Below, piece by piece: positions 1 to 25,288 of a stretch of DNA of 32,000 nt (position 1 is its first letter; every line of letters starts with the position of its first letter). The stretch covers positions 1,770,001-1,802,000 of the forward strand of contig NZ_CP034549.1 of the NCBI RefSeq assembly GCF_003966335.1, given 5' to 3'. The DNA is from Nonlabens ponticola. Its GTDB lineage: Bacteria > Bacteroidota > Bacteroidia > Flavobacteriales > Flavobacteriaceae. A model generated the notes under the pieces. That model was given only the letters and a program-made list of their open reading frames with translations, was not told the origin of the DNA and did not search any database. The translations under genes were made by a program, and so were the position numbers.

Positions 1-34
1 TTTTAGCTATTTGATATAATTCTTTTAAATTCAT
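1..34 (-). CDS. N-terminal fragment of the next cassette ORF (MNLKELYQIAK...), runs off the window
   Basis: ATG at 34-32 on the minus strand, 26 nt downstream of repeat R1. Same position relative to the repeat as the other cassette ORFs. Only 11 codons are visible. Confidence 0.3.
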   Translation of the reverse strand, partial: MNLKELYQIAK

Positions 35-60
35 ATTGTCTTTGGTTTGTCAAATTGCAC

Positions 61-188
61 ACAACGGTCTCGGCTATGAGTAGTTGCGTGGGTTAGCCTT
101 GTTTTCTCAAATGTACCCAACCCGTAGAAAATTTCGTAGAAATTTTTGGATGACCACAAACCGAGCAATTGTGTATAGCCCGTGTTGT
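61..188 (-). repeat. attC-like repeat R1 (128 bp)
   Basis: ACAAC (61-65) ... GTTGT (184-188). Arms GGCTATGAGTAGTTGC / GCAATTGTGTATAGCC. Inner hairpin AAAATTTC-GTA-GAAATTTT around 127-145. Confidence 0.85.
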
Positions 189-199
189 AAAACGTTTAT

Positions 200-802
200 T
201 TAGTAGCAATGAAGCGTTCGATGTTCCTCTTCTTCGTGATAATTTATTTCGCCACTAATAGCGTCGATTAGTAGTATTTCATCCTTTGAATAACATTTCT
301 CCTCGTAAAGCGTGTTGAAAACTTTCCATTCATATTTGTCAGTATGAATATTCCACTCCAATCTCATTGTTATAGGCGATACAGCTTTCTTTAATTTTAT
401 TTTCGATACGATGTTTTCGACTTGTTTTTTGGTCAGAAAATTTGAGTTTTCATTTTTGAGCAAATATTCCGGTATTCGCTCATCAAAATACATATCAATA
501 AATTTCAATGAGGTATCAAATTCCATATAAACTCCAAGATGTACATTTTCGAACGTGAAATTTGGATGGTTTAAATCATATAAAACTTCATATCTATCAA
601 AAGGCGAAGAAATCACATCTAAGCTATCAGTTTTGGCTAGCCGAGACTCTTTATCTAAACTGAAGTATTCAATTAAATGTTTTCCGAAATGGGCATTTAA
701 TACACTATCTGCTTTCACTAAAATTTGAGAGGCAGTATGATTTTGACCATTGCCATGGTAAGCCATTGAAACAAAAAAGAAAAATGTAATTAAAGGTTTC
801 AA
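200..802 (-). CDS. Cassette ORF: exported protein of unknown function, possible PepSY-like C-terminal region
   Basis: 200-aa ORF. TTG start 13 nt from R2. N-terminal hydrophobic signal-like segment KPLITFFFFVSMAY. C-terminal pattern LTKKQVENIV...YEWKV...LLIDAISGEI resembles PepSY domains. TAA stop 11 nt from R1. Confidence 0.6.
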   Translation of the reverse strand: MKPLITFFFFVSMAYHGNGQNHTASQILVKADSVLNAHFGKHLIEYFSLDKESRLAKTDSLDVISSPFDRYEVLYDLNHPNFTFENVHLGVYMEFDTSLKFIDMYFDERIPEYLLKNENSNFLTKKQVENIVSKIKLKKAVSPITMRLEWNIHTDKYEWKVFNTLYEEKCYSKDEILLIDAISGEINYHEEEEHRTLHCY

Positions 803-815
803 TTCTAAATGTTTT

Positions 816-942
816 ACAACGGTCTCAGCTATGAGTAGTTGCGTGGTTTAGCACTTAACTTTGCAAGTACACACCTAACTGAAAATCCGCGAGGATTTTC
901 AGAAGTAGGCGAGAACCAGCAATTACTTATAGCCATTGTTGT
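816..942 (-). repeat. attC-like repeat R2 (127 bp)
   Basis: ACAAC (816-820) ... GTTGT (938-942). Arms AGCTATGAGTAGTTGC / GCAATTACTTATAGCC. Inner hairpin GAAAATCC-GCGA-GGATTTTC at 881-900. Confidence 0.85.
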
Positions 943-951
943 ACACAGTAT

Positions 952-1734
952 TTATTTACTTAATTCTATTTGAAATTTTGTCGCATTAAATGCTGCTTGC
1001 AAACCTCTTAAATTTGTTTCAGATTTATTTTGTTCAAATAATTCAGCCAAGTATTCAGCTTGTTTGGTCACATTATCATTCTCCTTTTTAAATATTTGAT
1101 ATTTTAAAAGAATCAAATTCGCCATGATTTTATCTGAAATAGTTATATCACCTTGGTTTAGGTATTCCTTTATTGTACTTCCTATCTCGGAATCGTTTTC
1201 AGATAGTTCATCGAATAAGTAAGCATTAGCCAAGTCAGATTTATTCATAGTTGAGTAATCGTTTTGGTCAGACATATCTTTTCGGTAAGTCATTTTGTTG
1301 CCATTTAGAAAATACCATCTGGTGTAAGAATCATTTTCCATTTTGATTTCTTTTTCAAAAGCTTTTTTCTTTACAGTCCAATTTGTGAAAGCAATCAAAA
1401 GTTCAGTTCCGTCATCTTTCTTTAATATGGTAAATCGAATCAAGTAATTTCTTTTCCCTGGTTTTTCAATTTCGATGTCTAATTTATTTTCTACAGAAAC
1501 ATATTTTTTCAATGCTTTTAGAACTGATGAAACATCTTCAGGACTTGCTTCAGGAAATAAGTTTTCTCTTAAAAACAAATCAATGTATAAGTAATGAGTT
1601 AAATAAAAATCATCCATTTTCAGATAATTCGCCTCTGTCAAATGTTCGGTTTTGATATTGATTTTGTCTGATTGAGAATATCCAAAATTTGTGAATATTG
1701 CTAAAAGTAAAAGTGTGATTATTTTTCTGTTCAT
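952..1734 (-). CDS. Cassette ORF: exported protein of unknown function
   Basis: 260-aa ORF with ATG start. Signal-like N-terminus MNRKIITLLLLAIFTNFGYSQ. TAA stop 9 nt from R2. Confidence 0.65.
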   Translation of the reverse strand: MNRKIITLLLLAIFTNFGYSQSDKINIKTEHLTEANYLKMDDFYLTHYLYIDLFLRENLFPEASPEDVSSVLKALKKYVSVENKLDIEIEKPGKRNYLIRFTILKKDDGTELLIAFTNWTVKKKAFEKEIKMENDSYTRWYFLNGNKMTYRKDMSDQNDYSTMNKSDLANAYLFDELSENDSEIGSTIKEYLNQGDITISDKIMANLILLKYQIFKKENDNVTKQAEYLAELFEQNKSETNLRGLQAAFNATKFQIELSK

Positions 1735-1754
1735 TCTGTTGGGTTATATTGTGT

Positions 1755-1881
1755 ACAACGGTCTCGGCTATGAGTAGTTGCGTGGTTTAGTACTTAACTT
1801 TGCAAGTACACACCAAGTTGGAAATTCCGCAGGAATTTCAAAAGTAGGCGAGTAGAAGCAATTACTTATAGCCATTGTTGT
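1755..1881 (-). repeat. attC-like repeat R3 (127 bp)
   Basis: ACAAC (1755-1759) ... GTTGT (1877-1881). Arms GGCTATGAGTAGTTGC / GCAATTACTTATAGCC. Inner hairpin GAAATTCC-GCA-GGAATTTC at 1821-1839. Confidence 0.85.
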
Positions 1882-1891
1882 ATGCTGGCTT

Positions 1892-3388
1892 TTAAAGTCT
1901 CATCATTACCTCCGTTAATTTATTTTTTCTAATTTTCCATTGAAATTCTCTTAACTCCTCTATTTCAATGTTGCCATCTTTCGCTTTTAAAGTTTCAATG
2001 AAATCTCTTACCGTTTTGTCATTCCTTTGCCTTAATATGCAATGGTAAGTTAGTCCAACAAAGAAATATCCATCTTCTTTAGCTCTTTCAATAAATTCGA
2101 CTTTGTGGTCAGCTAGATCTACAACTTTACCATTAATTTCAGCGTACCCATTTTGATATTCACTGTATGATATGTGATGCTCATCATCAACAATTGCAGT
2201 ATGAAATGTCTCTTCTCCTTCAACAATAAATGGTTCTGACTTATTATGATGAACTAAAATGAAGTCATTAAAAACACTGTTGTCATAGAATACCCAAATT
2301 TCTTTTATTGAGTATTCTGAATCCCAAAATTTCCAGGTAGCTAACCCTTTTCTTGTTAGTGTAAAATCAATATTTCCAGAACCATCGTGCCACCACAGTT
2401 TATTATCAAATAGTTCTTCATTATCCTTAAAGGTTTGGAAAAGACTATCTATTCGTTCTAAATCATTGCTATGAACAAAGCCCCAGTTATTTTTTGGAAA
2501 ATTACTACGAACAACTCTATTAAAGTCGTACATATATTCGAAAATATCTTTTTCTCTACTATCCTTTATATATTGTTTGATGTCTGCAATGCTTTGGAAT
2601 CTTTGGCTTGGTTCATTTTTTAAACAATTTTCAATAACTCCATTAAACATTCTCTCATCTTCTATTTTGAGAGAAATTCTTTTTCTTCCCGTGCCTCTGT
2701 GTGTATTTCCTGTAGCAAACCATTGTAGAATTTGGCCAATTGCATATATATCCATAGTCGGATGTGAATCTTTGCCGGCTATTTCTTGTTCTGGTGCAGA
2801 AAAAAGTCTATTACCAATTCTTTCATTCTTGACAGTTTTTGCTCGGATTTCAAAAATTTCAGGATTGTAACTGGCGATTCCAAAATCTGCTAAAACATAT
2901 TTTCCATCTTTAACTAAAATGTTTTCTGGTTTTAAGTCTCGATGAATAATGCCTTGACTATGTATTTCATCTACTGCATCCAATAAAAAATTAAGTAGTT
3001 TAATGAAATTTTGACCCTTGTTTTCTGATTCATCAAGTTTTAATGAACTTTCATATTCCTTCATCATTATCACTGGAATAATCGCAGAACCCTCTTCATC
3101 CTCGAGGTTTAGCAAATCGTAATCCACATATTTAACGATGAAATTCGTTTTCTCAATAGTTACTATGTTGAAATATTCTGCTAAAAAACGCTCGGTCTTT
3201 GTTTTTAGAGATTTTCCAGAGGTATTACTCAAAAGAAATTTGAAAGCAAATGTCTTTCCGAAAATTTCACCTTTGTATACAATTCCGTTGCCACCTTCAC
3301 CAATTTTATCAATCAAATTTATTTCTCCAACAGAAAGCTGAATCTTATTTTTATTGTCTTTTAAATATCTTGAAAATCGTTCTTTCAT
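1892..3388 (-). CDS. Cassette ORF: Ser/Thr protein kinase domain fused to a ~200-aa C-terminal domain of unknown function
   Basis: 498-aa ORF. Glycine loop GEGGNG plus lysine in FAFKF. Catalytic loop HRDLKPENILV. DFG (LADFGIA). APE-like SAPE. No signal peptide. Confidence 0.85.
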   Translation of the reverse strand: MKERFSRYLKDNKNKIQLSVGEINLIDKIGEGGNGIVYKGEIFGKTFAFKFLLSNTSGKSLKTKTERFLAEYFNIVTIEKTNFIVKYVDYDLLNLEDEEGSAIIPVIMMKEYESSLKLDESENKGQNFIKLLNFLLDAVDEIHSQGIIHRDLKPENILVKDGKYVLADFGIASYNPEIFEIRAKTVKNERIGNRLFSAPEQEIAGKDSHPTMDIYAIGQILQWFATGNTHRGTGRKRISLKIEDERMFNGVIENCLKNEPSQRFQSIADIKQYIKDSREKDIFEYMYDFNRVVRSNFPKNNWGFVHSNDLERIDSLFQTFKDNEELFDNKLWWHDGSGNIDFTLTRKGLATWKFWDSEYSIKEIWVFYDNSVFNDFILVHHNKSEPFIVEGEETFHTAIVDDEHHISYSEYQNGYAEINGKVVDLADHKVEFIERAKEDGYFFVGLTYHCILRQRNDKTVRDFIETLKAKDGNIEIEELREFQWKIRKNKLTEVMMRL

Positions 3389-3408
3389 TTTGTTATTTCA
3401 GCTTGCAT

Positions 3409-3536
3409 ACAACGGTTATGTATAAATATAGTTGCGGGTTTGCGTGCGAAGAATTTCCGAAGGAAATTTAGATGTAGCAAATACGCAACTGCCTTTATTT
3501 TAGCACTAAACCGCAATTATTTTTATACGGTGTTGT
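3409..3536 (-). repeat. attC-like repeat R4 (128 bp, divergent sequence, same structure)
   Basis: ACAAC (3409-3413) ... GTTGT (3532-3536). Arms GTATAAATATAGTTGC / GCAATTATTTTTATAC still pair. Inner hairpin AATTTCC-GAA-GGAAATT at 3452-3468. Confidence 0.8.
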
Positions 3537-3545
3537 GCATAGTTT

Positions 3546-3935
3546 TTATTCACATACTTTATTTTTTTCAATCCACGGATTAATAAATTTCCTTTCAGTT
3601 CCGAGTATTGTTTTCATTTCGGGTTCGTCGAAAATTAGATAGAAATTTTTGTCTTTTTCCACGTATTTAAATTTCAATTCAGTACAATATTTTCCAGTGC
3701 CGTGATTTACGAGCATACTTATAATTCCATCTTCAATTTTTATGTCTTTCACGGATTCCACCATAATAAAATTAACTTTTATATCAGAAGGAATTTCTTT
3801 TTCACTATAATTTCCAAGGTCATTCATTTCAATCATTTCGTCAACGATTTCTTGAATCCATTTGTCAATAGATTTTTCTTGGTTGATTTGGATGTTTGAA
3901 ATTCCAATCAAAAATGTCAGTAAAATTATTTTCAT
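3546..3935 (-). CDS. Cassette ORF: small exported protein of unknown function
   Basis: 129-aa ORF with ATG start. Signal-like N-terminus MKIILLTFLIGISNIQ. TAA stop 9 nt from R4. Confidence 0.6.
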   Translation of the reverse strand: MKIILLTFLIGISNIQINQEKSIDKWIQEIVDEMIEMNDLGNYSEKEIPSDIKVNFIMVESVKDIKIEDGIISMLVNHGTGKYCTELKFKYVEKDKNFYLIFDEPEMKTILGTERKFINPWIEKNKVCE

Positions 3936-3956
3936 ATTCTGTTTCTCAAATTATGC

Positions 3957-4083
3957 ACAACGGTTTGGGCTATGAACAGTTGCGTGGGTTAGCACGGACT
4001 TCTACAAGTAAACTGCAAGCTGAAAATTCCGCAGGAATTTTCAGGATAAGCCTGTAATAGCAATTGTTTATAGCCATTGTTGT
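3957..4083 (-). repeat. attC-like repeat R5 (127 bp)
   Basis: ACAAC (3957-3961) ... GTTGT (4079-4083). Arms GGCTATGAACAGTTGC / GCAATTGTTTATAGCC. Inner hairpin GAAAATTCC-GCA-GGAATTTTC within 4021-4043. Confidence 0.85.
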
Positions 4084-4093
4084 AAAACGTTTT

Positions 4094-4690
4094 TTACTCC
4101 AAATATTCTACATCAGAACGAACTTTTTCACGCCATTTATTTCCGTATTTTTCGTCCATTAGTTCAAATATCCGTTCGTTATATTGTTCAATACATTCCG
4201 AAATTGGTGGTTCACAACCAAAATCAAAATATTTAACTTTAAATCTTTTCTCAAATCGATTGCCGGAAGGTGAGTTTGCAATTGGTGCAATTGAACCAAC
4301 AAGTAATAAATTTGCCGTTCCGTTTTTCCAGTCAGATTCTGCACGTTCAGCATTATATTCACAATCCGCTTTTAATTCAAACGTCACGTTATTAATTCCG
4401 TTTTTCGTTTCGACGTCAAACTTTTGTTTTCAGTAACCGAATGCAGAGATCTCTATAATATATTTTTGATTAGGTTCAAGATATTCAATTCGGAAATTAC
4501 CTAAACTGTCAGCCATAATTAATGGTTGTTTAGTAATCAATTCTTGAACATAAATATCCGAAATTGGTTTTTCTCCTGAAACTCCGCTAATCACCTTTCC
4601 TACGATTTCAGTTTGTCCGTATATAATTCCGCAAACTAATATTAAAATCAGTTTGATAATGTTTTTCTGTATGTTCAGATTTTTCTTCAA
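4094..4690 (-). pseudogene. Cassette ORF split by one in-frame TGA: N-terminal CarboxypepD_reg-like exported segment (4430-4690) plus a C-terminal part (4094-4387)
   Basis: The 86-aa and 97-aa ORFs are in the same frame. 4388-4429 is 42 nt (14 sense codons, KQKFDVETKNGINN) and the only interruption is the TGA at 4432-4430. The downstream ORF has only a GTG start. There is no attC-like repeat between them. Confidence 0.5.
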
Positions 4691-4697
4691 ATGTTTT

Positions 4698-4825
4698 ACA
4701 ACGGTCTAGGCTATGCGCAGTTGCGCGGTTCATCCTTATTTTTCCAAATATATTCAAACCGTAGAAAATTCCGCAGGAATTTTCGGATGAGCAATGACAG
4801 AGCAATTGCGTATAGCCATTGTTGT
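4698..4825 (-). repeat. attC-like repeat R6 (128 bp)
   Basis: ACAAC (4698-4702) ... GTTGT (4821-4825). Arms GGCTATGCGCAGTTGC / GCAATTGCGTATAGCC. Inner hairpin GAAAATTCC-GCA-GGAATTTTC at 4764-4784. Confidence 0.85.
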
Positions 4826-4834
4826 AAAACGTTA

Positions 4835-5599
4835 TTATTTATAAACTCTTTCATAAATTCCTATTTCGCAACCGCTACATGTGCTCAATATAGAATTTCT
4901 CTTTTTAATATGTTTAATTAGTATTTCATCCAACTTGCTTAGTTCGAAACTGGTGTTCTCGTCTAAATATTCCAAAGCGTCTACTCCGTAAGTTTGTAAT
5001 TCTGGATTAAATGATTTTAACCATTCTCTAAACTTTTTCGCATTCCTTTTTTTATCGAATTTGAAATCATTATATCTTGGTATTTTGTAAGAAATAGGCG
5101 CATATCCACAAAAGTATCCGTAAATATGATAAGATAATACCTGACTGATAAAGTCTTCTTTTTTTAAGTTGGTTTGGTAGAATACATTATGATTACTTAA
5201 ATATTCGTCAAACGTAGTTTCTTCAAAGTAAAATTCGGTGTCTTTTCGATAAGTATCAAAACTTATTAAACCTACTATGATATTATTTTTTTTGAACGTA
5301 TGAACATTATACGATTTATTTTTTATCTGTTTGTTATCAGGATAATTAATGTTTACTTCATATACTGATTCGGTTAAACCGTAGTCGATATCTCTAGCAT
5401 ATAGGAATCCGCCAAAACTATATTTAGGATTAACCTCTCTTATGGTTTTGAAATCAATCAACTTTAAAGTGTCCAAATCAAAATTTTGGTATTCTTTAAA
5501 ATAGTTCTGAATTTCAGCTACCGCGTTCATTTCCGCTTGACTTTGAGAAAAAGACAATAATGGAATAAGCAATAAAATAAAAAAGTTTAGTGTCCTCAA
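4835..5599 (-). CDS. First cassette ORF: exported protein of unknown function
   Basis: 254-aa ORF. TTG start (no in-frame ATG before a stop). Signal-like N-terminus RTLNFFILLLIPLLSFSQSQ. TAA stop 9 nt from R6. Confidence 0.6.
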   Translation of the reverse strand: MRTLNFFILLLIPLLSFSQSQAEMNAVAEIQNYFKEYQNFDLDTLKLIDFKTIREVNPKYSFGGFLYARDIDYGLTESVYEVNINYPDNKQIKNKSYNVHTFKKNNIIVGLISFDTYRKDTEFYFEETTFDEYLSNHNVFYQTNLKKEDFISQVLSYHIYGYFCGYAPISYKIPRYNDFKFDKKRNAKKFREWLKSFNPELQTYGVDALEYLDENTSFELSKLDEILIKHIKKRNSILSTCSGCEIGIYERVYK

Positions 5600-5616
5600 A
5601 GGTGTTTATTAAAATG

Positions 5617-5632
5617 TTTTACAACGGTTATA
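5617..5632 (-). other. attI-like half-site (left arm of the repeat only)
   Basis: TTTTACAACGGTTATA matches the flank, ACAAC core and spacer of the repeats (AAATGTTTTACAACGG is shared with R2 and R6). The sequence then becomes unique, with no right arm. It lies between the first cassette and the recombinase. Confidence 0.7.
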
Positions 5633-5636
5633 TAAA

Positions 5637-5667
5637 CAAACCTAAGCCATTTATTACCAGTTTACAA
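5637..5667 (-). promoter_or_regulatory. Candidate Pc-like promoter reading into the cassette array
   Basis: The minus strand reads ATTG (5668-5665), a 20-nt spacer, then TAGGTTTG (5644-5637). This resembles the Bacteroidetes -33 TTTG / -7 TAnnTTTG consensus and is positioned just upstream of the half-site. Motif match only. Confidence 0.25.
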
Positions 5668-5674
5668 TACTATA

Positions 5675-5699
5675 TGGTAGGTATATGCAAACCTTTTGA
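5675..5699 (+). repeat. Direct repeat DR-a (TGGTAGGTATATGCAAACCTTTTGA)
   Basis: Matches DR-b at 23 positions with two 1-nt indels, 48 bp upstream of DR-b. Contains a 4-codon mini-ORF, ATG CAA ACC TTT TGA. Confidence 0.7.
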
Positions 5700-5707
5700 T
5701 AGATTTG
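5700..5707 (+). promoter_or_regulatory. Candidate -7 box (TAGATTTG) for the recombinase gene
   Basis: Matches TAnnTTTG 25 nt upstream of the ATG at 5732. No convincing -33 element found. Confidence 0.2.
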
Positions 5708-5722
5708 AACATAATTCACTTT

Positions 5723-5745
5723 TGGTAGTATATGCAAACCTTTGA
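5723..5745 (+). repeat. Direct repeat DR-b (TGGTAGTATATGCAAACCTTTGA), overlaps the recombinase start codon
   Basis: Second copy of DR-a. Its ATG (5732) opens the 277-aa recombinase ORF. Confidence 0.7.
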
Positions 5746-6565
5746 CGATTTTAGGCAGTTAATGACCATTAAAAGGTATGCGCCCAACACTATTGATTCT
5801 TATCGTGGTTTACTCATTGCCTTTCAAAAATTCCTAGGGCATGATCATCCTATCGACGAGTTGCAGGATCGTCAAATAAAAGAGGCAGTAAGCGAGGTAG
5901 TCGTAGCAAAGTCTCTTGCCGTTGCCACGCAAAAGCAACTACTGTCTGCACTAAAACTCTATTTTAAAGAGATGCACAGACGCGATCTTGACTTTTATAG
6001 CGTCTATCCTAGAGTAAAGCCTAGACCTATTCCAGTGATTTTGAGCACGCAGGAAGTAGGAGCAATTTTATCGCATACCAAAAACTTGAAACATAAAGCC
6101 ATGCTAACGCTAATTTATGCGTTGGGATTACGCAGCGGCGAGCTCATCAATCTCAAAATCAGCGACATCGACAAACATCGCAAGCTGGTACACATTAAAA
6201 GTTCCAAAAACAAAAAGGATCGTATCATTCCTTTTCCTGATGGTCTGGGCGAGCTTTTAAATAAGTACTACAAGGAATACCAACCTACGGAATTCTTATT
6301 CAACGGCCAGTCCACAAATCAGTACCACGCGCAAAGCCTGCGCAAGGTGTTCCACAAATCGTGTAAGCTTGCTGGAATCAACAAGAAAGTTACACTGCAC
6401 AGTTTGCGCCACGCCTATGCCACGCACCTCATGGATGCAGGAACTGATTTGCGTGTCATTAAGGAATTGCTGGGTCACAACAGTATCAAGACAACATTGA
6501 TCTACACGCATGTAACCAATAAAACGCTTCAACACTTGCCCAATCCGCTGGATTTTATCAAATAA
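5732..6565 (+). CDS. Tyrosine site-specific recombinase, XerC/XerD-like, lacking the IntI-specific insertion
   Basis: 277 aa. N-terminal SAM-like core-binding region (YAPNTIDSYRGLL, ATQKQLLSALKLYF). Catalytic signature LGLRSGE (Arg I), HSLRHAYATH (His-x-x-Arg), LLGHNSIKTTLIYTHV (His, Tyr). About 60 aa separate KKDR from LRH. Confidence 0.9.
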   Translation: MQTFDDFRQLMTIKRYAPNTIDSYRGLLIAFQKFLGHDHPIDELQDRQIKEAVSEVVVAKSLAVATQKQLLSALKLYFKEMHRRDLDFYSVYPRVKPRPIPVILSTQEVGAILSHTKNLKHKAMLTLIYALGLRSGELINLKISDIDKHRKLVHIKSSKNKKDRIIPFPDGLGELLNKYYKEYQPTEFLFNGQSTNQYHAQSLRKVFHKSCKLAGINKKVTLHSLRHAYATHLMDAGTDLRVIKELLGHNSIKTTLIYTHVTNKTLQHLPNPLDFIK

Positions 6566-6614
6566 CTCACCGATCAAATTCATATTTGATATAAACTATT
6601 TCCACTTAATCAAA

Positions 6615-13372: not shown

Positions 13373-13776
13373 TCTACCTTCTCATAACGTTCTGCACAGG
13401 CTTCCATACACTGATAGCGTACTTCAAGGATCTTACCATTAAGTTCAAAAGCTGCGATACAGCCGCCTTTATTGAAGCTCTTGGTGGTCATGTCTAGTTC
13501 GGCTGTTTTGCCAGCGGTAAAAAAGTTGCCCACACAAACGTTCTCGTTGGATACAACGGTACCTTCCTTTTTAAAAGTCAAGGTCTTATCGCTATCTGTT
13601 TCTTGAAATTTAGCACTGCCATTACCAGGATCTGCAAGAGAATGAGTGATTCTCCAGGTACCATAAATAGGCGATTTTGATTCGGTAGTATTTGATCCAC
13701 AGGAGACAAAAAGTAGGGCAACTGCGATGATAGTTAGGGCTTTCAACGTGAGTAATTTAAGGTTAAGATACATCAT
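13369..13776 (-). CDS. Small lipoprotein of unknown function
   Basis: 135 aa. Lipobox-like LLFVSCGS after a hydrophobic leader. Confidence 0.65.
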   Translation of the reverse strand: MMYLNLKLLTLKALTIIAVALLFVSCGSNTTESKSPIYGTWRITHSLADPGNGSAKFQETDSDKTLTFKKEGTVVSNENVCVGNFFTAGKTAELDMTTKSFNKGGCIAAFELNGKILEVRYQCMEACAERYEKVD

Positions 13777-20143: not shown

Positions 20144-22870
20144 TTGACCGAATACCCAAAAGATATCCAATTCAAGTATCCGTGGAGAAAATATCAAGAA
20201 AAAGTGCTGCGTGAACTTAATCATCACTTAAGGGATAAACACCTACATATTATCGCACCTCCAGGATCAGGTAAGACTGTTTTGGGAATTGAAGTTGCTA
20301 TAAGATTAAACAAACCTACCCTGATTCTTGGACCAACTTTGGCCATACGTAACCAATGGATACAACGGTTTTGTGAGCTTTTTCTACAAACCAATGTCAC
20401 GCCAGATTGGATTTCGCGTGATATTAGAAATCCTGATTTTCTAACCGTGGTCACTTATCAAGGTTTACACGCAGCGTGCAATAATTGGAATCTTATAGAA
20501 GAAGAGTTTGAGGAAGAAGAGGATGCTGATGTTGAAGAAACACCATCAAGATCCTCTCGATCTGAACTTTCCAAGATTGTAGGATTGCTCCAATCTAAAA
20601 ACATTGGGACTATTGTGGTAGACGAGGCACATCACCTGAAAAAAGAATGGTGGCATACTTTGATACAGATTAAGTCTGAATTAGATCCAGTAATTGTTGG
20701 ACTAACAGCCACGCCACCTTATGATGTGAACTATACTCAATGGCATCGATACATAAGTTTAAATGGCCCGATTGATACCGAAATCTCAGTTCCAGAATTG
20801 GTAATTGAAGAAGACTTATGTCCGCATCAGGATTATGTCCATTTTACTATGCCTACCAAGGATGAGCGTCGTAAAATCATCAATTTCAGAACCAATGTTG
20901 GTAAACTGTATAGAGAGGTTAAGGCTGATGACACACTTGCAATAGCAGTAGAGCAGCATCCTATCTGGCAGAACCCATTGGATCATTTAGATTGGATCTA
21001 TGACAATCTTCAGTACTATTCGGCTATTTTAATATTCTTGAAATCTTTTGGTAAAGAAATACCAGAGTCACATCAAGAGGTCATCAATGACAAAAATGCT
21101 GAGATTCCCGCTTTTGATTATAGATGGGCTGAAGAATTATTGGAATTTTATCTGTTTAGGGAAGAAGAAGCCTTTCCCGATTTTATAGAACACCAAAAAA
21201 GACTGTTAAGCAGACTCAAAAGATACGGAGCTGTTGAACGTAATAAAGTCAATTTTCTATACAATAGAAATCTGGCTGGTTTGCTTACATCAAGTATTAG
21301 CAAAATTAATAGCATTCAAGAAATCGTCGATTTTGAACGTTCACATCTAGGTTGCGATTTACGCCTGGTTATTCTTTCGGATTATATCCGTAAGGAGTAT
21401 CTAATTAATGAAAATGAGAACAGTCTAGATCTAAATAAAATGGGAGTCATCCCAATTTTTGAGAAGTTGAGAAGATCTAATAGGGGTAAATCAAAAATAG
21501 GAGTTCTGACAGGTTCGATTATTATTATTCCTGACAACGCCTACGGTGCTTTACAAGCCAAAGCGTTCAAAAATGGTCTTGATGAGATCAACACAGTTAC
21601 CTTAACCTATGATAATGAATACCTAATCATAAATCGCACAGAGCAGAACAAAAATCAAATCGTGCATCTAATTACAGAACTCTTTGAAGATGGAGAAATT
21701 GAAATTCTTGTGGGTACAAAATCTTTGCTGGGTGAAGGTTGGGATGCACCGTGTATCAACACATTGATTTTGGCAACATTTGTTGGGTCCTTTGTCTTGT
21801 CTAATCAGATGCGAGGTAGAGCCATCAGGACTCAAAATCTAAACTTAGATAAAACTGCCAATATATGGCATCTAGCTTGTATAGATAGCTCATCGCCTAA
21901 TGGTGGTACTGACTTTGATCTTTTAAAAAGACGCTTTAGAGGTTTTGTAGGTGTGTCAAATAAAGAGAAAGGCGGTATAGAAAATGGCATGGATCGCTTG
22001 AATCTACCAGAATTAGTTCATCTTGAAAAGCAAGCAATACAGGCGAACCTGGAAATGTTCAAACAGGCTGGCAATAGAAAAAATCTAAAACAACGATGGG
22101 ATGATGCCTTAAAAACAGGAGTAACGCTAGTAGAGGAACTTAAATTACCGTTTCCCAATAAGACCAATTACCAAGCGGTAAAAACCATTCATCTCAATGA
22201 TACTATAACAAACTTTATCTACACGCTTATTGCAGCGATAGTAACGTTCTTCTTTGAAAATTTTTTAGGTGCTTTTAAAGATTTGTTCTTTGTAAAAACT
22301 ACTTGGCAATTTTATACCATTCTCTTAGTGCCACTGATGATTCTGATTGTGACCTTTGGCGGTAAAACACTCAAAGCCTTTAGGTTATATTTCAAATACC
22401 GAGATATTTCAAAGGACTTGCATAAAATTGGAGACGTCTTATTACGTTCTTTAATTCATGCTAACGTTATTAAATCGAGCTACTCTAGCTATAAGGTGAT
22501 TACATCGGTCAATGAGTATGGGACAGTTTATTGTCATCTAGAAGGTGGAACTACCTATGATAAGTCAACTTTCATAAATGCGCTTCAGGAGATTGTCTCA
22601 GTAGTTGATAATCCTAGATGCATCCTAATAAGGAAGAATAAACTGATGGGTTATCTGAGCCAAAAAGACTATCATGCCATTCCAGAAGTTTTGGGTCGCA
22701 ATAAGAAAACAGCGTTATTTTTTAAAGACACTTGGGAGCAATACGTGGGTGATTGTGAGTTGATCTTTACAAGAACCGTAGAAGGTAGAAAGTTTGTTCT
22801 CACGTCAAGAATGAAGTCTCTTGCATCCCAATTTGATGAAGAGGCTGAACATGTCAATATATGGAGGTAG
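20144..22870 (+). CDS. SF2 DEAH-box helicase-family protein with two predicted transmembrane helices in the C-terminal third
   Basis: 908 aa with TTG start as called. Motif I APPGSGKT, motif II VVDEAHH, motif III LTATP, motif VI QMRGRAIR. Hydrophobic segments ITNFIYTLIAAIVTFFFENFLGAF and WQFYTILLVPLMILIVTFGG (about 22204-22365). Confidence 0.8.
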   Translation: MTEYPKDIQFKYPWRKYQEKVLRELNHHLRDKHLHIIAPPGSGKTVLGIEVAIRLNKPTLILGPTLAIRNQWIQRFCELFLQTNVTPDWISRDIRNPDFLTVVTYQGLHAACNNWNLIEEEFEEEEDADVEETPSRSSRSELSKIVGLLQSKNIGTIVVDEAHHLKKEWWHTLIQIKSELDPVIVGLTATPPYDVNYTQWHRYISLNGPIDTEISVPELVIEEDLCPHQDYVHFTMPTKDERRKIINFRTNVGKLYREVKADDTLAIAVEQHPIWQNPLDHLDWIYDNLQYYSAILIFLKSFGKEIPESHQEVINDKNAEIPAFDYRWAEELLEFYLFREEEAFPDFIEHQKRLLSRLKRYGAVERNKVNFLYNRNLAGLLTSSISKINSIQEIVDFERSHLGCDLRLVILSDYIRKEYLINENENSLDLNKMGVIPIFEKLRRSNRGKSKIGVLTGSIIIIPDNAYGALQAKAFKNGLDEINTVTLTYDNEYLIINRTEQNKNQIVHLITELFEDGEIEILVGTKSLLGEGWDAPCINTLILATFVGSFVLSNQMRGRAIRTQNLNLDKTANIWHLACIDSSSPNGGTDFDLLKRRFRGFVGVSNKEKGGIENGMDRLNLPELVHLEKQAIQANLEMFKQAGNRKNLKQRWDDALKTGVTLVEELKLPFPNKTNYQAVKTIHLNDTITNFIYTLIAAIVTFFFENFLGAFKDLFFVKTTWQFYTILLVPLMILIVTFGGKTLKAFRLYFKYRDISKDLHKIGDVLLRSLIHANVIKSSYSSYKVITSVNEYGTVYCHLEGGTTYDKSTFINALQEIVSVVDNPRCILIRKNKLMGYLSQKDYHAIPEVLGRNKKTALFFKDTWEQYVGDCELIFTRTVEGRKFVLTSRMKSLASQFDEEAEHVNIWR

Positions 22871-22949
22871 CAGATTAATTACTTTTACTCATTCCTTATT
22901 TCAACTACTTGATTCTTTACGATCAAGGAAAGAATTTTTGCAAAATAAT

Positions 22950-22980
22950 AAAGCCCGATCTCTCGATCGGGCTTTATTTT
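22950..22980. terminator. Bidirectional rho-independent terminator between convergent helicase and katG
   Basis: AAAGCCCGATC-tctc-GATCGGGCTTT 11-bp stem, followed by ATTTT on the plus strand and TATTATTTTG on the minus strand. Confidence 0.8.
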
Positions 22981-22993
22981 AATCAAACAGGTT

Positions 22994-25288
22994 CTAGCTG
23001 TCTTTTACATCATAACGATCCAGCATCATGACCTTGTCCCATGCGGCGACAAAATCATGGATAAAACGATCATTTCCATCATCTGCAGCATAAACCTCGG
23101 CGATGTTGCGTAATTGGGCATTTGACCCAAAAACTAGATCATTGCGTGTTGCCGTATAATCTACCTGACCATTATCGCGTCTCTTTAAATCAAAGAGCAA
23201 CTTGCTCGAACTTTTAGGCACCCATTCATAATCCATGCTGGTAAGCACCTGGAAAAAGTCGTTTGTCAATTGACCTGGGCGCTGCGTGAATACACCATGT
23301 TTAGAATAGTCATAATTCTGCTCAAGTACTCGTAATCCGCCTGTAAGAACGGTCCATTCTGGCGCGCTCAACGATAATAGATTTGCTCTGTCTAGAAAGA
23401 TGCGCTCCTGAGCCACATGATAACCTACATTGTTGTTGTGGTAGTTTTTAAAGCCATCGGATACCGGTTTTAACCAATCAAAACTTTCTACATCAGTCCA
23501 TTCAGGGCTAGCATCCATGCGGCCTGGCGTGAAAGGTACTTTTATAGTTTTTCCTGCATCGCTCGCTGCTTTTTCTATGGCGGCACAACCACCTAGCACC
23601 ACAAGATCTGCAAGCGATATTTTTATATCGCCTGATGATTGATTGAAATCTGATTGGATATTTTTCAATGTATCCAGCACTTTGTTCAATTCTTTAGGTC
23701 TATTGAGGTCCCAATTGTTTTGCGGTTCCAGCGCTATTCTTGCTCCATTGGCGCCACCGCGCTTATCACTATGTCTGTAAGTGGATGCAGCTGACCATGC
23801 AGCATTTACAAGTGCAGACACGCTCAAACTGCTGTCAAGAATCTGCTTTTTAAGATCTGATATTTGTTGGTCATTCACCAATTTATGATCTACCGCAGGT
23901 ATCGGGTCTTGCCAGATTAGATCTTCAGCTGGTACTTCTGTTCCTAGGTAACGATCCTTAGGTCCCATGTCACGATGGGTTAGTTTGTACCACGCTTTCG
24001 CGAAAGCGGTAGTGAAATAATCAAAATCTTCCATGAATTTCTCACACACCTTGCGATAAGCCGGATCTACCTTGAGCGCTAGGTCAGACGTCATCATCAT
24101 GATAGGCTCTGACTTACCAGGAATATGTGCATCTGGTGTTTGTGGAGCATCCTCTTGAACTGGTGTCCATTGAATCGCACCAATCGGACTTTTAGTCTGT
24201 TTGTAATCGTATTTGAATAGGTTGATCAGGTAATCATTATCCCAATTGGTTGGATTTGATGTCCACGAACCCTCGATACCATTGGTCATCGTATTTTCCG
24301 CATTACCGTTGCCTACTGGATTATGCCAGCCAAAACCTTGTGCCTCCATAGGTGCTGCTTCTGGTGCTGCTCCCAATTTGTCAGGTTCTACCATACCATG
24401 ACTTTTTCCAAAGGCGTGACCACCAGCAATAAGCGCCACAGTCTCTTCATCATTCATCGCCATACGCGCAAAAGATTCCCGTATGTTTCTTGCACTGTCC
24501 ATAGGATCACCGTTAGCGCCAGGTCCTTCTGGATTTACATAAATTAGGTTGGAGTGCGTCGCAGCTAGCGGATTCTCAAGATCGTGGTATTCTTCCTTAG
24601 GATCACCTTTCCATCGCAGGTTATTGTTCACCATCTCTTCTGGATGACCCTTGCGGTTGACACCAGTTTGCGATTCTTCATATTTCTTGCCGTCCCAAAA
24701 TTCTGGACCCCAATAGGTACTGCGATCTGGTTCCCATGCGTCGCGGCGACCGCCGGCAAAACCATAAGTAGGAAAGCCCATGATCTCTAGCGCGCAGTTA
24801 CCTGTGAGGACGATCAAATCTGCCCATGAGAGTGCCGCACCATATTTTTTCTTTATAGGCCAGATAAGTCGTTGCGACTTATCAATGTTACCATTGTCCC
24901 ACCAGGAATTAATAGGCGCAAAACGTTGCATGCCCTGACCAGCGCCGCCGCGACCGTCTGCGATGCGATAGGTACCAGCACTATGCCACGCCATGCGTAT
25001 CATTTGCGGTCCATAATTGCCATAATCTGCAGGCCACCAGTCTTGAGAACTCACTAGAACCTCTTTGATATCTTTCTTGAGTTGATCATAGTCCAGGCTA
25101 TTAAACGCAGCCTTATAATCCTCATCACTCAAAGGGTTGGAGATGGGTTGTTCCTGGTGCAAGAATTCCACTTGTAGTCTGTTGGGCCACCAATCATCAG
25201 TCGTAGGTGTGGATACAATGGCGCCGCCTATACGTGTACCTCTAAAGGGGCACATTGCTAGGTTTTCTGGGTTGCTTATATCTTTCAT
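22994..25288 (-). CDS. katG: Catalase-peroxidase
   Basis: Start trimmed to ATG 25288 ([15 protein letters not shown]). Hallmark KatG sequences [37 protein letters not shown]. Two-domain length of about 764 aa. Confidence 0.97.
23993..24008. repeat. Iterated palindrome copy 5 (core 23994-24007, extended CGCTTTCGCGAAAGCG)
   Basis: Read directly. Inside katG, encodes TAFAKAW. Confidence 0.95.

Follow-up and report, generated by a model that had tools for sequence, protein, structure and literature searches.

A Ser/Thr kinase fused to a conserved C-terminal domain in an integron-type cassette of Nonlabens ponticola: a candidate single-gene defence protein

PD-T4-6 is reportedly a single-gene Ser/Thr kinase defence of Escherichia coli, and Stk2 of Staphylococcus epidermidis is said to be an abortive-infection Ser/Thr kinase; the latter reportedly responds to a phage cue, its trigger being PacK, and halts the cell through widespread phosphorylation. 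Other enzymes occur in comparable single-chain arrangements: SpbK, the TIR abortive-infection protein of the Bacillus subtilis element ICEBs1, joins sensor and effector in one polypeptide on a mobile element, and in CapRel(SJ46) an N-terminal toxic enzyme is checked by a C-terminal phage-sensing domain. Experiments have shown that compact defence systems abound in the cassettes of chromosomal integrons, in work that centred on Vibrio cholerae, had its other integron-borne copies usually in Vibrio, and does not use the word "kinase" in its main text (Darracq et al., bioRxiv 10.1101/2024.07.02.601686). The stretch analysed here, called the window throughout, comprises 32,000 nucleotides of the flavobacterium Nonlabens ponticola (contig NZ_CP034549.1, positions 1,770,001 to 1,802,000, forward strand), and our subject is a gene near its left end that is packaged as an integron-type cassette and encodes a Hanks-type Ser/Thr kinase fused to a C-terminal domain, which we call domain X. 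The reading that we favour, with a probability of roughly 0.55, gives this protein a defence or conflict function of its own, X sensing and the kinase executing.

Set beside PD-T4-6, the window protein has the same build, a single protein in which an N-terminal Hanks kinase is followed by a variable C-terminal region, and at least 25 PD-T4-6 profiles in the 2023 release of PADLOC match it (models PDLC04039-04063; best match 6.5e-24, 82.6 bits). These matches, however, end with the kinase domain (residues ~19-284; for example, PDLC04060 is aligned over 11-276 of 486 and PDLC04061 over 14-213 of 510), and no profile aligns to X. Stk2 resembles it in being a cytoplasmic Hanks-type kinase but differs in domain layout and in its non-kinase parts; the Stk2 match (5e-18, 63 bits) pairs residues 7-274 with positions 111-351 of a 500-position profile and so covers the kinase core only. 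A PADLOC search, proposed in the initial annotation, does thus return defence names (PD-T4-6, MkoA, mad6, Stk2), but since none of the matches extends past the kinase fold or outscores Pfam Pkinase, they do not amount to a defence-system call, and none of the four labels was taken as a sign of membership. By analogy, the window protein may be likened in its working to PD-T4-6 and Stk2, without being a demonstrable member of either. The comparison with SpbK is one of arrangement, as SpbK carries its TIR domain at the C-terminal end (matches at profile 149-307 of 308) and has no X, whereas the window protein is a kinase without TIR; Thoeris ThsB is similar to the TIR halves of paralogues described below and not to the window protein, and the parallel with CapRel is a functional analogy only. 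Like the defence cassettes of sedentary integrons, our candidate is compact, and it forms a cassette bounded by attC sites within an array on the chromosome, but here a flavobacterium is the host and a non-canonical integrase accompanies the array.

The protein of 498 aa is encoded on the minus strand at 1892..3388 (ATG start; stop codon at 1892-1894), by ORF call and homologues the sole long open reading frame (ORF) of the cassette interval; the plus-strand ORFs of 50-97 aa that overlap it are unsupported. Pfam, conservation, the AlphaFold2 (AF2) model and Foldseek together place the kinase domain at residues ~19-280 (2549..3334, minus strand), and Pfam Pkinase (PF00069) matches residues 25-248 with E = 8e-24 and 84.8 bits, the cut-off being 31.7. 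Across 69 aligned homologues, the GEGGNG loop, K50, E71, H149-R150-D151, K153, N156, D168-F-G170, S197-A-P-E200, D213 and R263 vary little or not at all, and T185 in the activation loop is invariant. The full-length AF2 model has a predicted local distance difference test score (pLDDT) of 89, its sole disordered part being residues 184-190 of the activation loop; Foldseek with this model finds only kinases in the PDB, PknB among them, and all 19 NCBIfam matches, of which the PknB kinase domain is the best, fall inside the kinase domain. The enzyme is presumably active, its domain being intact and predicted to be catalytically competent. The motifs from which the initial annotation had read a complete kinase are all present and conserved, and its remark that the protein, unlike the other cargo, lacks a signal peptide agrees with what we see by eye: the N-terminus (MKERFSRYLKDNKNK...) has no hydrophobic leader, whereas five of the other cassette ORFs begin with signal-like leaders such as MNRKIITLLLLAIF and MRTLNFFILLLIPLL.

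Domain X occupies residues 281-498 (218 aa; 1895..2548, minus strand), slightly more than the motif-free C-terminal region of about 200 aa first recognised at 1892-2520. As Foldseek of the full-length model had given kinases only, X was modelled on its own, and the resulting AF2 model is confident (pLDDT 95, predicted TM score 0.89), with an N-terminal helix, a beta core of about 16 strands and a C-terminal segment of three helices. Searches for structural relatives covered the PDB and BFVD, and neither held a significant match (best E = 0.28 and 0.03, respectively, both with template modelling (TM) scores below 0.25), which is the outcome of the structure prediction and Foldseek comparison that had been suggested for this part of the protein. 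The weak top matches were to beta folds of the cupin, 2-oxoglutarate-dependent dioxygenase and cyclic-nucleotide-binding-like kinds; with TM scores this low, they were not taken to indicate homology. Sequence searches gave the same picture: Pfam leaves X unrecognised in 30 family members, X alone matches none of the PADLOC families, nothing in NCBIfam or PHROGs corresponds to it, and its profile has no accepted match in the PDB, a Set1 RRM-like fragment (E = 0.003) being judged a chance hit over a low-complexity helical stretch. On sequence and model, X is a conserved, apparently well-folded module without recognised relatives in the libraries searched. The positions conserved in all its architectures are mainly hydrophobic or structural (F289, P298, I313, L331, W352, I361, W365, G414), and conserved polar positions are few, namely E358, E410, R435 and an Arg at 433 that is absent from the window protein; because of this predominance of hydrophobic and structural residues, the profile is more in keeping with a domain for binding or regulation than with an enzyme. 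Residue 433 of the window protein is Ile; Arg occupies this position in 76% of X domains, 17 of 20 fusions to something other than a kinase among them. The neighbouring R435 is kept, and the substitution may reflect a difference in a ligand site.

The family is large and its partners vary. A search with the full-length protein found more than 120 clusters of ~500 aa with the same two-domain layout and 39-88% identity to the window protein, the named members being nearly all from Bacteroidota (Tenacibaculum, Echinicola, Mucilaginibacter, Fibrivirga, Taibaiella, Saprospiraceae), with one match from Candidatus Absconditabacterales. With a profile of X only, 317 clusters were recovered at E <= 1e-3 among 1.84 billion representative proteins; 83 of the 131 newly listed representatives match a kinase-domain profile, and the other 48 either are short and probably partial or have a different N-terminal half. 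X is there combined with alternative, known immune effector domains: TIR_2 of Pfam precedes it in P0138, P0161, P0187, P0222, P0121, P0144, P0239, P0242 and P0150, with which seven further X proteins cluster by BLAST, and a PNP_UDP_1 phosphorylase precedes it in P0251; EAD1 stands in this place in P0238, and a transmembrane segment plus FHA in P0168. The PADLOC matches of the TIR halves are to SpbK (100-180 bits) or to ThsB (166-174 bits), and that of the PNP half is to a CBASS PN-superfamily effector. Between the TIR protein P0121 and kinase proteins such as P0037 and P0025, the X domains are 60-66% identical, and because these values lie within the full-length range of the kinase–X proteins (39-88%), they point to a fairly recent replacement of the effector. 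A further 79 loci (L003-L081), collected in a generic scan for kinase motifs (HRDLKPEN and similar), turned out to be unrelated kinases of other phyla and were set aside.

EAD1 is reportedly fused, as a rule, to effectors in nucleoside triphosphate-dependent conflict systems, and because a protein of the EAD1–X type exists, the logic might be the reverse of the one we favour, X being an enzymatic, membrane-targeting or nucleic-acid-targeting effector and the kinase, TIR, PNP, EAD1 and FHA parts its regulators, still within a conflict system. The FHA–X protein, which suggests a possible phospho-threonine control of X, and the two Glu and one or two Arg conserved in X would accord with that; we nevertheless regard it as quite unlikely, as TIR and PNP are already established effectors and two effectors in a protein of 400 aa would be unusual, while conserved polar residues are scarce in X and its fold matched no enzyme. 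Two of the variant loci deserve a description of their own. The EAD1–X gene (L088, 2445-3515) adjoins a gene for a HicB-like antitoxin, on a contig that, at only 4.4 kb, is too short to show an EAD1-bearing NTPase partner. The TIR–X gene of P0187 (L090, 7925-9994) is one of several unrelated genes that follow each other on the same strand (Por_Secre_tail, Ank, LRR, DUF6090), spaced by ~72-nt repeats that contain GTTGTTT (e.g., 13469-13507), with a 509-aa RVT_1 gene downstream; a gene of the X family may thus be carried here by a further cassette array of a different kind.

The kinase domain scores higher with the PHROGs profile phrog_2361 "serine-threonine kinase" (119 bits) than with Pfam Pkinase (85 bits), and a kinase of phage T7 is reported to disarm defences (PMC13645617). 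Both would suit a kinase of phage or prophage origin that serves the mobile element through superinfection exclusion or anti-defence. Such a role seems very improbable, however: X is unmatched in PHROGs and BFVD, a 7-sequence X profile found eight metagenome loci and, in a search limited to two narrow patterns, no relative in IMG/VR, and the annotated neighbours of the inspected loci include no phage structural genes.

Outside integrons, homologues occupy variable mobile or defence islands. In Mucilaginibacter rubeus, the kinase lies 173 bp from a Gabija pair (GajA, 845 bits; GajB, 649 bits), within a conjugative-transposon-like element with RteC, DUF932 and DUF3560; in Fibrivirga algicola, it is accompanied by a CBASS cyclase-E2 (746 bits), a NUDIX effector and a resolvase, with a GmrSD-like enzyme immediately upstream. 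A GmrSD-like enzyme is also found 1.5 kb downstream on a 1.67-Mb scaffold of a metagenome-assembled genome, together with a 985-aa ABC-type ATPase, and a 4.4-Mb assembly (L082) has transposases, a group II intron reverse transcriptase, an N6/N4 methyltransferase and AbiEii nearby. The Echinicola locus (L001) contains a tyrosine integrase, HipBA, a helix-turn-helix gene and an HNH protein, and a further metagenome contig contains the PDC-S06 candidate ATPase, a HATPase_c_3 protein and DUF559. Taken together, defence or toxin–antitoxin (TA) genes occur within 10 kb in 6 of the 7 non-integron contexts (Gabija, CBASS, GmrSD-like/HEC-06, AbiEii, HipBA, PDC-S06); given that only a few percent of the genes of a bacterial genome are devoted to defence, this is well above expectation, though from a small sample with no formal control.

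A housekeeping domain in conserved synteny had been named from the outset as the finding that would speak against defence, and the opposite is seen, no neighbour gene being common to the inspected non-integron loci. This bears on the possibility that the protein is an ordinary housekeeping or stress-signalling kinase, captured in a cassette, whose X binds a physiological ligand. Bacterial Hanks kinases do commonly regulate growth and development, the best NCBIfam match is the PknB kinase domain, and the neighbourhood of one homologue (L102) consists of RNA repair and Band_7 genes. Still, we find this improbable, as the distribution is patchy and without conserved synteny, over islands, a conjugative-transposon-like element and integron cassettes; the protein has no transmembrane, PASTA or other classical sensor domain; and X pairs with the immune-type domains TIR and PNP.

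The same surroundings invite a different explanation, a fused TA-like addiction module in which the kinase is the toxin and X its inhibitor in cis, stabilising the array or mobile island rather than sensing phage. HipA is an example of a kinase that acts as a toxin, and sedentary or large chromosomal integrons are stabilised by TA cassettes; here, too, a single-gene unit resides on mobile DNA, and homologues lie beside TA genes (HipBA in L001, AbiEii in L082, and HicB next to EAD1–X in L088). A toxin and antitoxin in one polypeptide, however, would give no post-segregational killing unless the parts differ in stability, and the swapping of X onto TIR, PNP and EAD1 is typical of immune sensors. 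We therefore think an addiction module unlikely as the full explanation, although the roles of addiction and defence are compatible, as in fused TA systems such as CapRel.

The case for a defence or conflict function with X as the sensor and the kinase as the executor comes from a combination of features by which single-chain immune sensor-effectors are usually marked: because an intact enzyme of an abortive-infection class is joined to a private, conserved and non-enzymatic-looking domain, because that domain swaps partners, and because the gene resides in islands and here in an autonomous cassette, the protein is probably best seen as self-contained, cytoplasmic and immune. We infer that X would be its sensing or regulatory module and would keep the kinase inactive until an infection-derived cue binds, for which a phage protein, a nucleic acid or a nucleotide ligand are candidates. 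Release or oligomerisation would then allow trans-autophosphorylation of the activation loop, with T185 as the candidate site, and the active kinase would broadly phosphorylate host and/or phage proteins, so that growth or phage replication stops in an abortive infection; in the TIR–X and PNP–X paralogues, the same trigger would lead to depletion of NAD+ or ATP instead. Autoinhibition by X, autophosphorylation at T185 and broad substrate phosphorylation are putative steps of this scheme. The defence or abortive-infection role raised in the initial annotation is thus better supported than before, through the partners of X (TIR, PNP, EAD1) and the island locations, whereas the PADLOC matches reflect a generic kinase fold, and for the stress-effector role raised beside it, nothing was found in support.

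Several observations weigh against the sensing-kinase scheme. No known defence model in PADLOC covers X, and the kinase matches there are generic (82.6 bits, against 84.8 for Pfam Pkinase). The EAD1–X architecture could mean that X is an effector and not a sensor, and Ile433, in place of the family's Arg, could mean that the putative trigger site of this particular protein is different or weakened. The remaining cargo of the array looks secreted and unrelated to defence, and the kinase cassette is the fourth from the attI side, which we count against it on expression grounds. Lastly, the neighbourhoods sampled amount to about eight independent loci without a formal background control, and one of them (L102) is an RNA-repair cluster with RlaP, an RNA ligase, a PNKP-like protein, TROVE and Band_7, and has no recognised defence system. 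If the scheme is confirmed, Bacteroidota, whose immune repertoire has seen few tests, would gain a single-gene defence family with a kinase as its output, and a new sensor domain would be defined; as this one sensor is coupled to a kinase in some proteins and to TIR or PNP in others, it would also offer a natural comparison of abortive-infection outputs from a single trigger.

The setting of the gene is an AT-rich block that makes up the left ~5.7 kb of the window (31% G+C, against ~44% for the rest) and in which minus-strand ORFs alternate with repeats of ~135 nt. When the repeats are aligned, an inverse core (TACAAC...) directly follows each stop codon and a core ACCGTTGT... directly precedes the next ORF. 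The exact 8-mer ACAACGGT is found at 61, 816, 1755, 3409, 3957, 4698 and 5621, all seven in one orientation and all representing R' ends of the attC-like repeats; the whole window contains 10 copies, where 0.72 are expected by chance. A hidden Markov model (HMM) built from six repeats recovers each of them at nhmmer E = 3e-29 to 3e-43, and an Rfam scan of window positions 1-6600 gave no match. With cassette limits set by the G|TT crossover rule, the array (65..5624, minus strand) consists of six complete cassettes, 65-819, 820-1758, 1759-3412, 3413-3960, 3961-4701 and 4702-5624, with lengths in array order of 755, 939, 1654, 548, 741 and 923 bp. At its right end lies an attI-like junction (5600..5628, minus strand), whose core is the last ACAACGGT, shared with the attC R' ends; a recombinase gene diverges from the array, and the genes to the right of it are ordinary chromosomal ones (two amidohydrolase-like ORFs, a KatG-type peroxidase, PFK, GAPDH and a sodium:solute symporter). 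Because co-oriented repeats are combined with a divergent recombinase and flanked by chromosomal genes, the block is a chromosomal integron-type cassette array, complete with its attI-like junction.

The kinase cassette (1759..3412, minus strand) is delimited by the ACAA|CGGT sites at 1755-1762 and 3409-3416 and by the attC alignment, and it is the largest of the six. Its length of 1654 bp is that given in the initial annotation, with the limits moved by 4 nt from 1755..3408, and the kinase is, as stated there, carried alone: a 24-nt leader from the crossover to the ATG, the one ORF of 498 aa and an attC of 131 nt leave no further room. That attC (1753..1883, minus strand) runs from R'' ATACAAC at 1883-1877 to R' GTTGTAC at 1759-1753, and on the plus strand of the window (for the ORFs, the bottom strand) its folding gives the long, imperfect hairpin expected of an attC site, with -21.8 kcal/mol (z = -3.25) compared with -16.7 kcal/mol on the opposite strand. 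The attC of the preceding cassette (3407..3538, minus strand; nhmmer 3e-29) provides, with its R', the first bases of the kinase cassette. Being packaged in 1.65 kb in this way, the gene is a stand-alone unit that should be easily transplanted.

That the cassette moves on its own can be seen in its closest relative with genomic context, P0002 (86% identity), which is present on three metagenome contigs (L085, L086 and L087), in each of which an attC of the same family ends at the start codon. Upstream of the gene, in L085 and L086, similarity to the window starts at or near the crossover G|TTGTATGCAAGCT, the body of the upstream attC comes from a different cassette, and the upstream cassettes themselves differ (82 aa versus 117 aa); a similar copy therefore exists behind other cassettes, with its similarity bounded near the crossover. 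Downstream, the similarity runs through the inverse core (R'') and then ends, a terminator-like hairpin taking the place of the attC body, which suggests either the end of an array or truncation of the attC by recombination at R''. In sequence, L085 (11495-11635) and L086 (3544-3698) have the inverse core (ATACAACAA) followed by the terminator-like hairpin and then a run of T. The attC HMM, applied to the other homologue loci, found this attC type only beside the 86%-identical relative; since more distant homologues do not adjoin this attC family, the capture by an integron is lineage-specific, and most members of the family are outside such arrays. The gene travels as a one-gene unit in either case, as a cassette here and in mobile or defence islands without a constant partner in other Bacteroidota.

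The recombinase is a tyrosine recombinase of 277 aa encoded at 5732..6565 on the plus strand (Pfam Phage_integrase, 1e-40). Compared with IntI1, for which the sequence used was checked to be 100% identical to annotated intI1, it is 29% identical and has the same catalytic residues (R134, H223-x-x-R226, H249 and Y258), but it is without the IntI-specific additional domain, a region of ~35-40 aa with the ALER motif, and the alignment has gaps at IntI1 ~199-229 and 239-249. It correspondingly scores below the cut-offs for integron integrases, with 182 against 265 bits for TIGR02249 and 110 against 435 for PRK15417. The additional domain is reportedly necessary for the recognition of folded attC sites, and attC arrays beside an integrase that is without it cast doubt on one of the features by which integron integrases are defined. 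In marine Flavobacteriaceae, homologues of 274-279 aa are widespread; they are common in Nonlabens, Lacinutrix, Aquimarina, Croceitalea, Maribacter and Aequorivita, and their annotation goes no further than tyrosine recombinase or XerD. In Nonlabens arenilitoris (L103, 10001-10831), a recombinase with 65% identity stands beside a divergent array with at least eight sites matching the attC model of the window and with different cargo, and because the short integrase and the attC array recur together there, Flavobacteriaceae appear to have an integron platform that is conserved and non-canonical. For Bacteroidota as such, the presence of integrons has been reported in general terms (PMC8618304), and the short integrase may explain why the phylum is under-reported by integron-finding tools. 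The most far-reaching combination of our results, in which X would be an undescribed fold and a common infection sensor with interchangeable outputs (a Ser/Thr kinase, a TIR NADase, a PNP nucleosidase or an EAD1 adaptor), trafficked in marine Flavobacteriaceae by a non-canonical integron whose integrase would act on attC sites without the additional domain, is put forward as tentative and, taken whole, rather doubtful.

The rest of the array seems to be secreted orphan cargo. The minus-strand cassette ORFs 200-802, 952-1734, 3546-3935 and 4835-5599 have signal-peptide-like leaders, match nothing in Pfam above curated cut-offs, in NCBIfam or in PHROGs, and give a single PADLOC match between them, that of 3546-3935 to PDC-M63A, which is marginal (E = 0.003). 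Cassette 3961-4701 contains two minus-strand ORFs, one of 86 aa with a signal-like leader (4430-4690) and one of 97 aa (4094-4387) that is a FEKKY-domain protein (NCBIfam NF052319, 6e-28); it could be a two-gene cassette or a single frameshifted gene. Far to the right, a plus-strand ORF of 908 aa resembling ResIII/DEAD helicases (20144-22870) overlaps a patch of low G+C content at 21001-23000 (0.36, compared with ~0.44) and may be another acquired or restriction-related gene.

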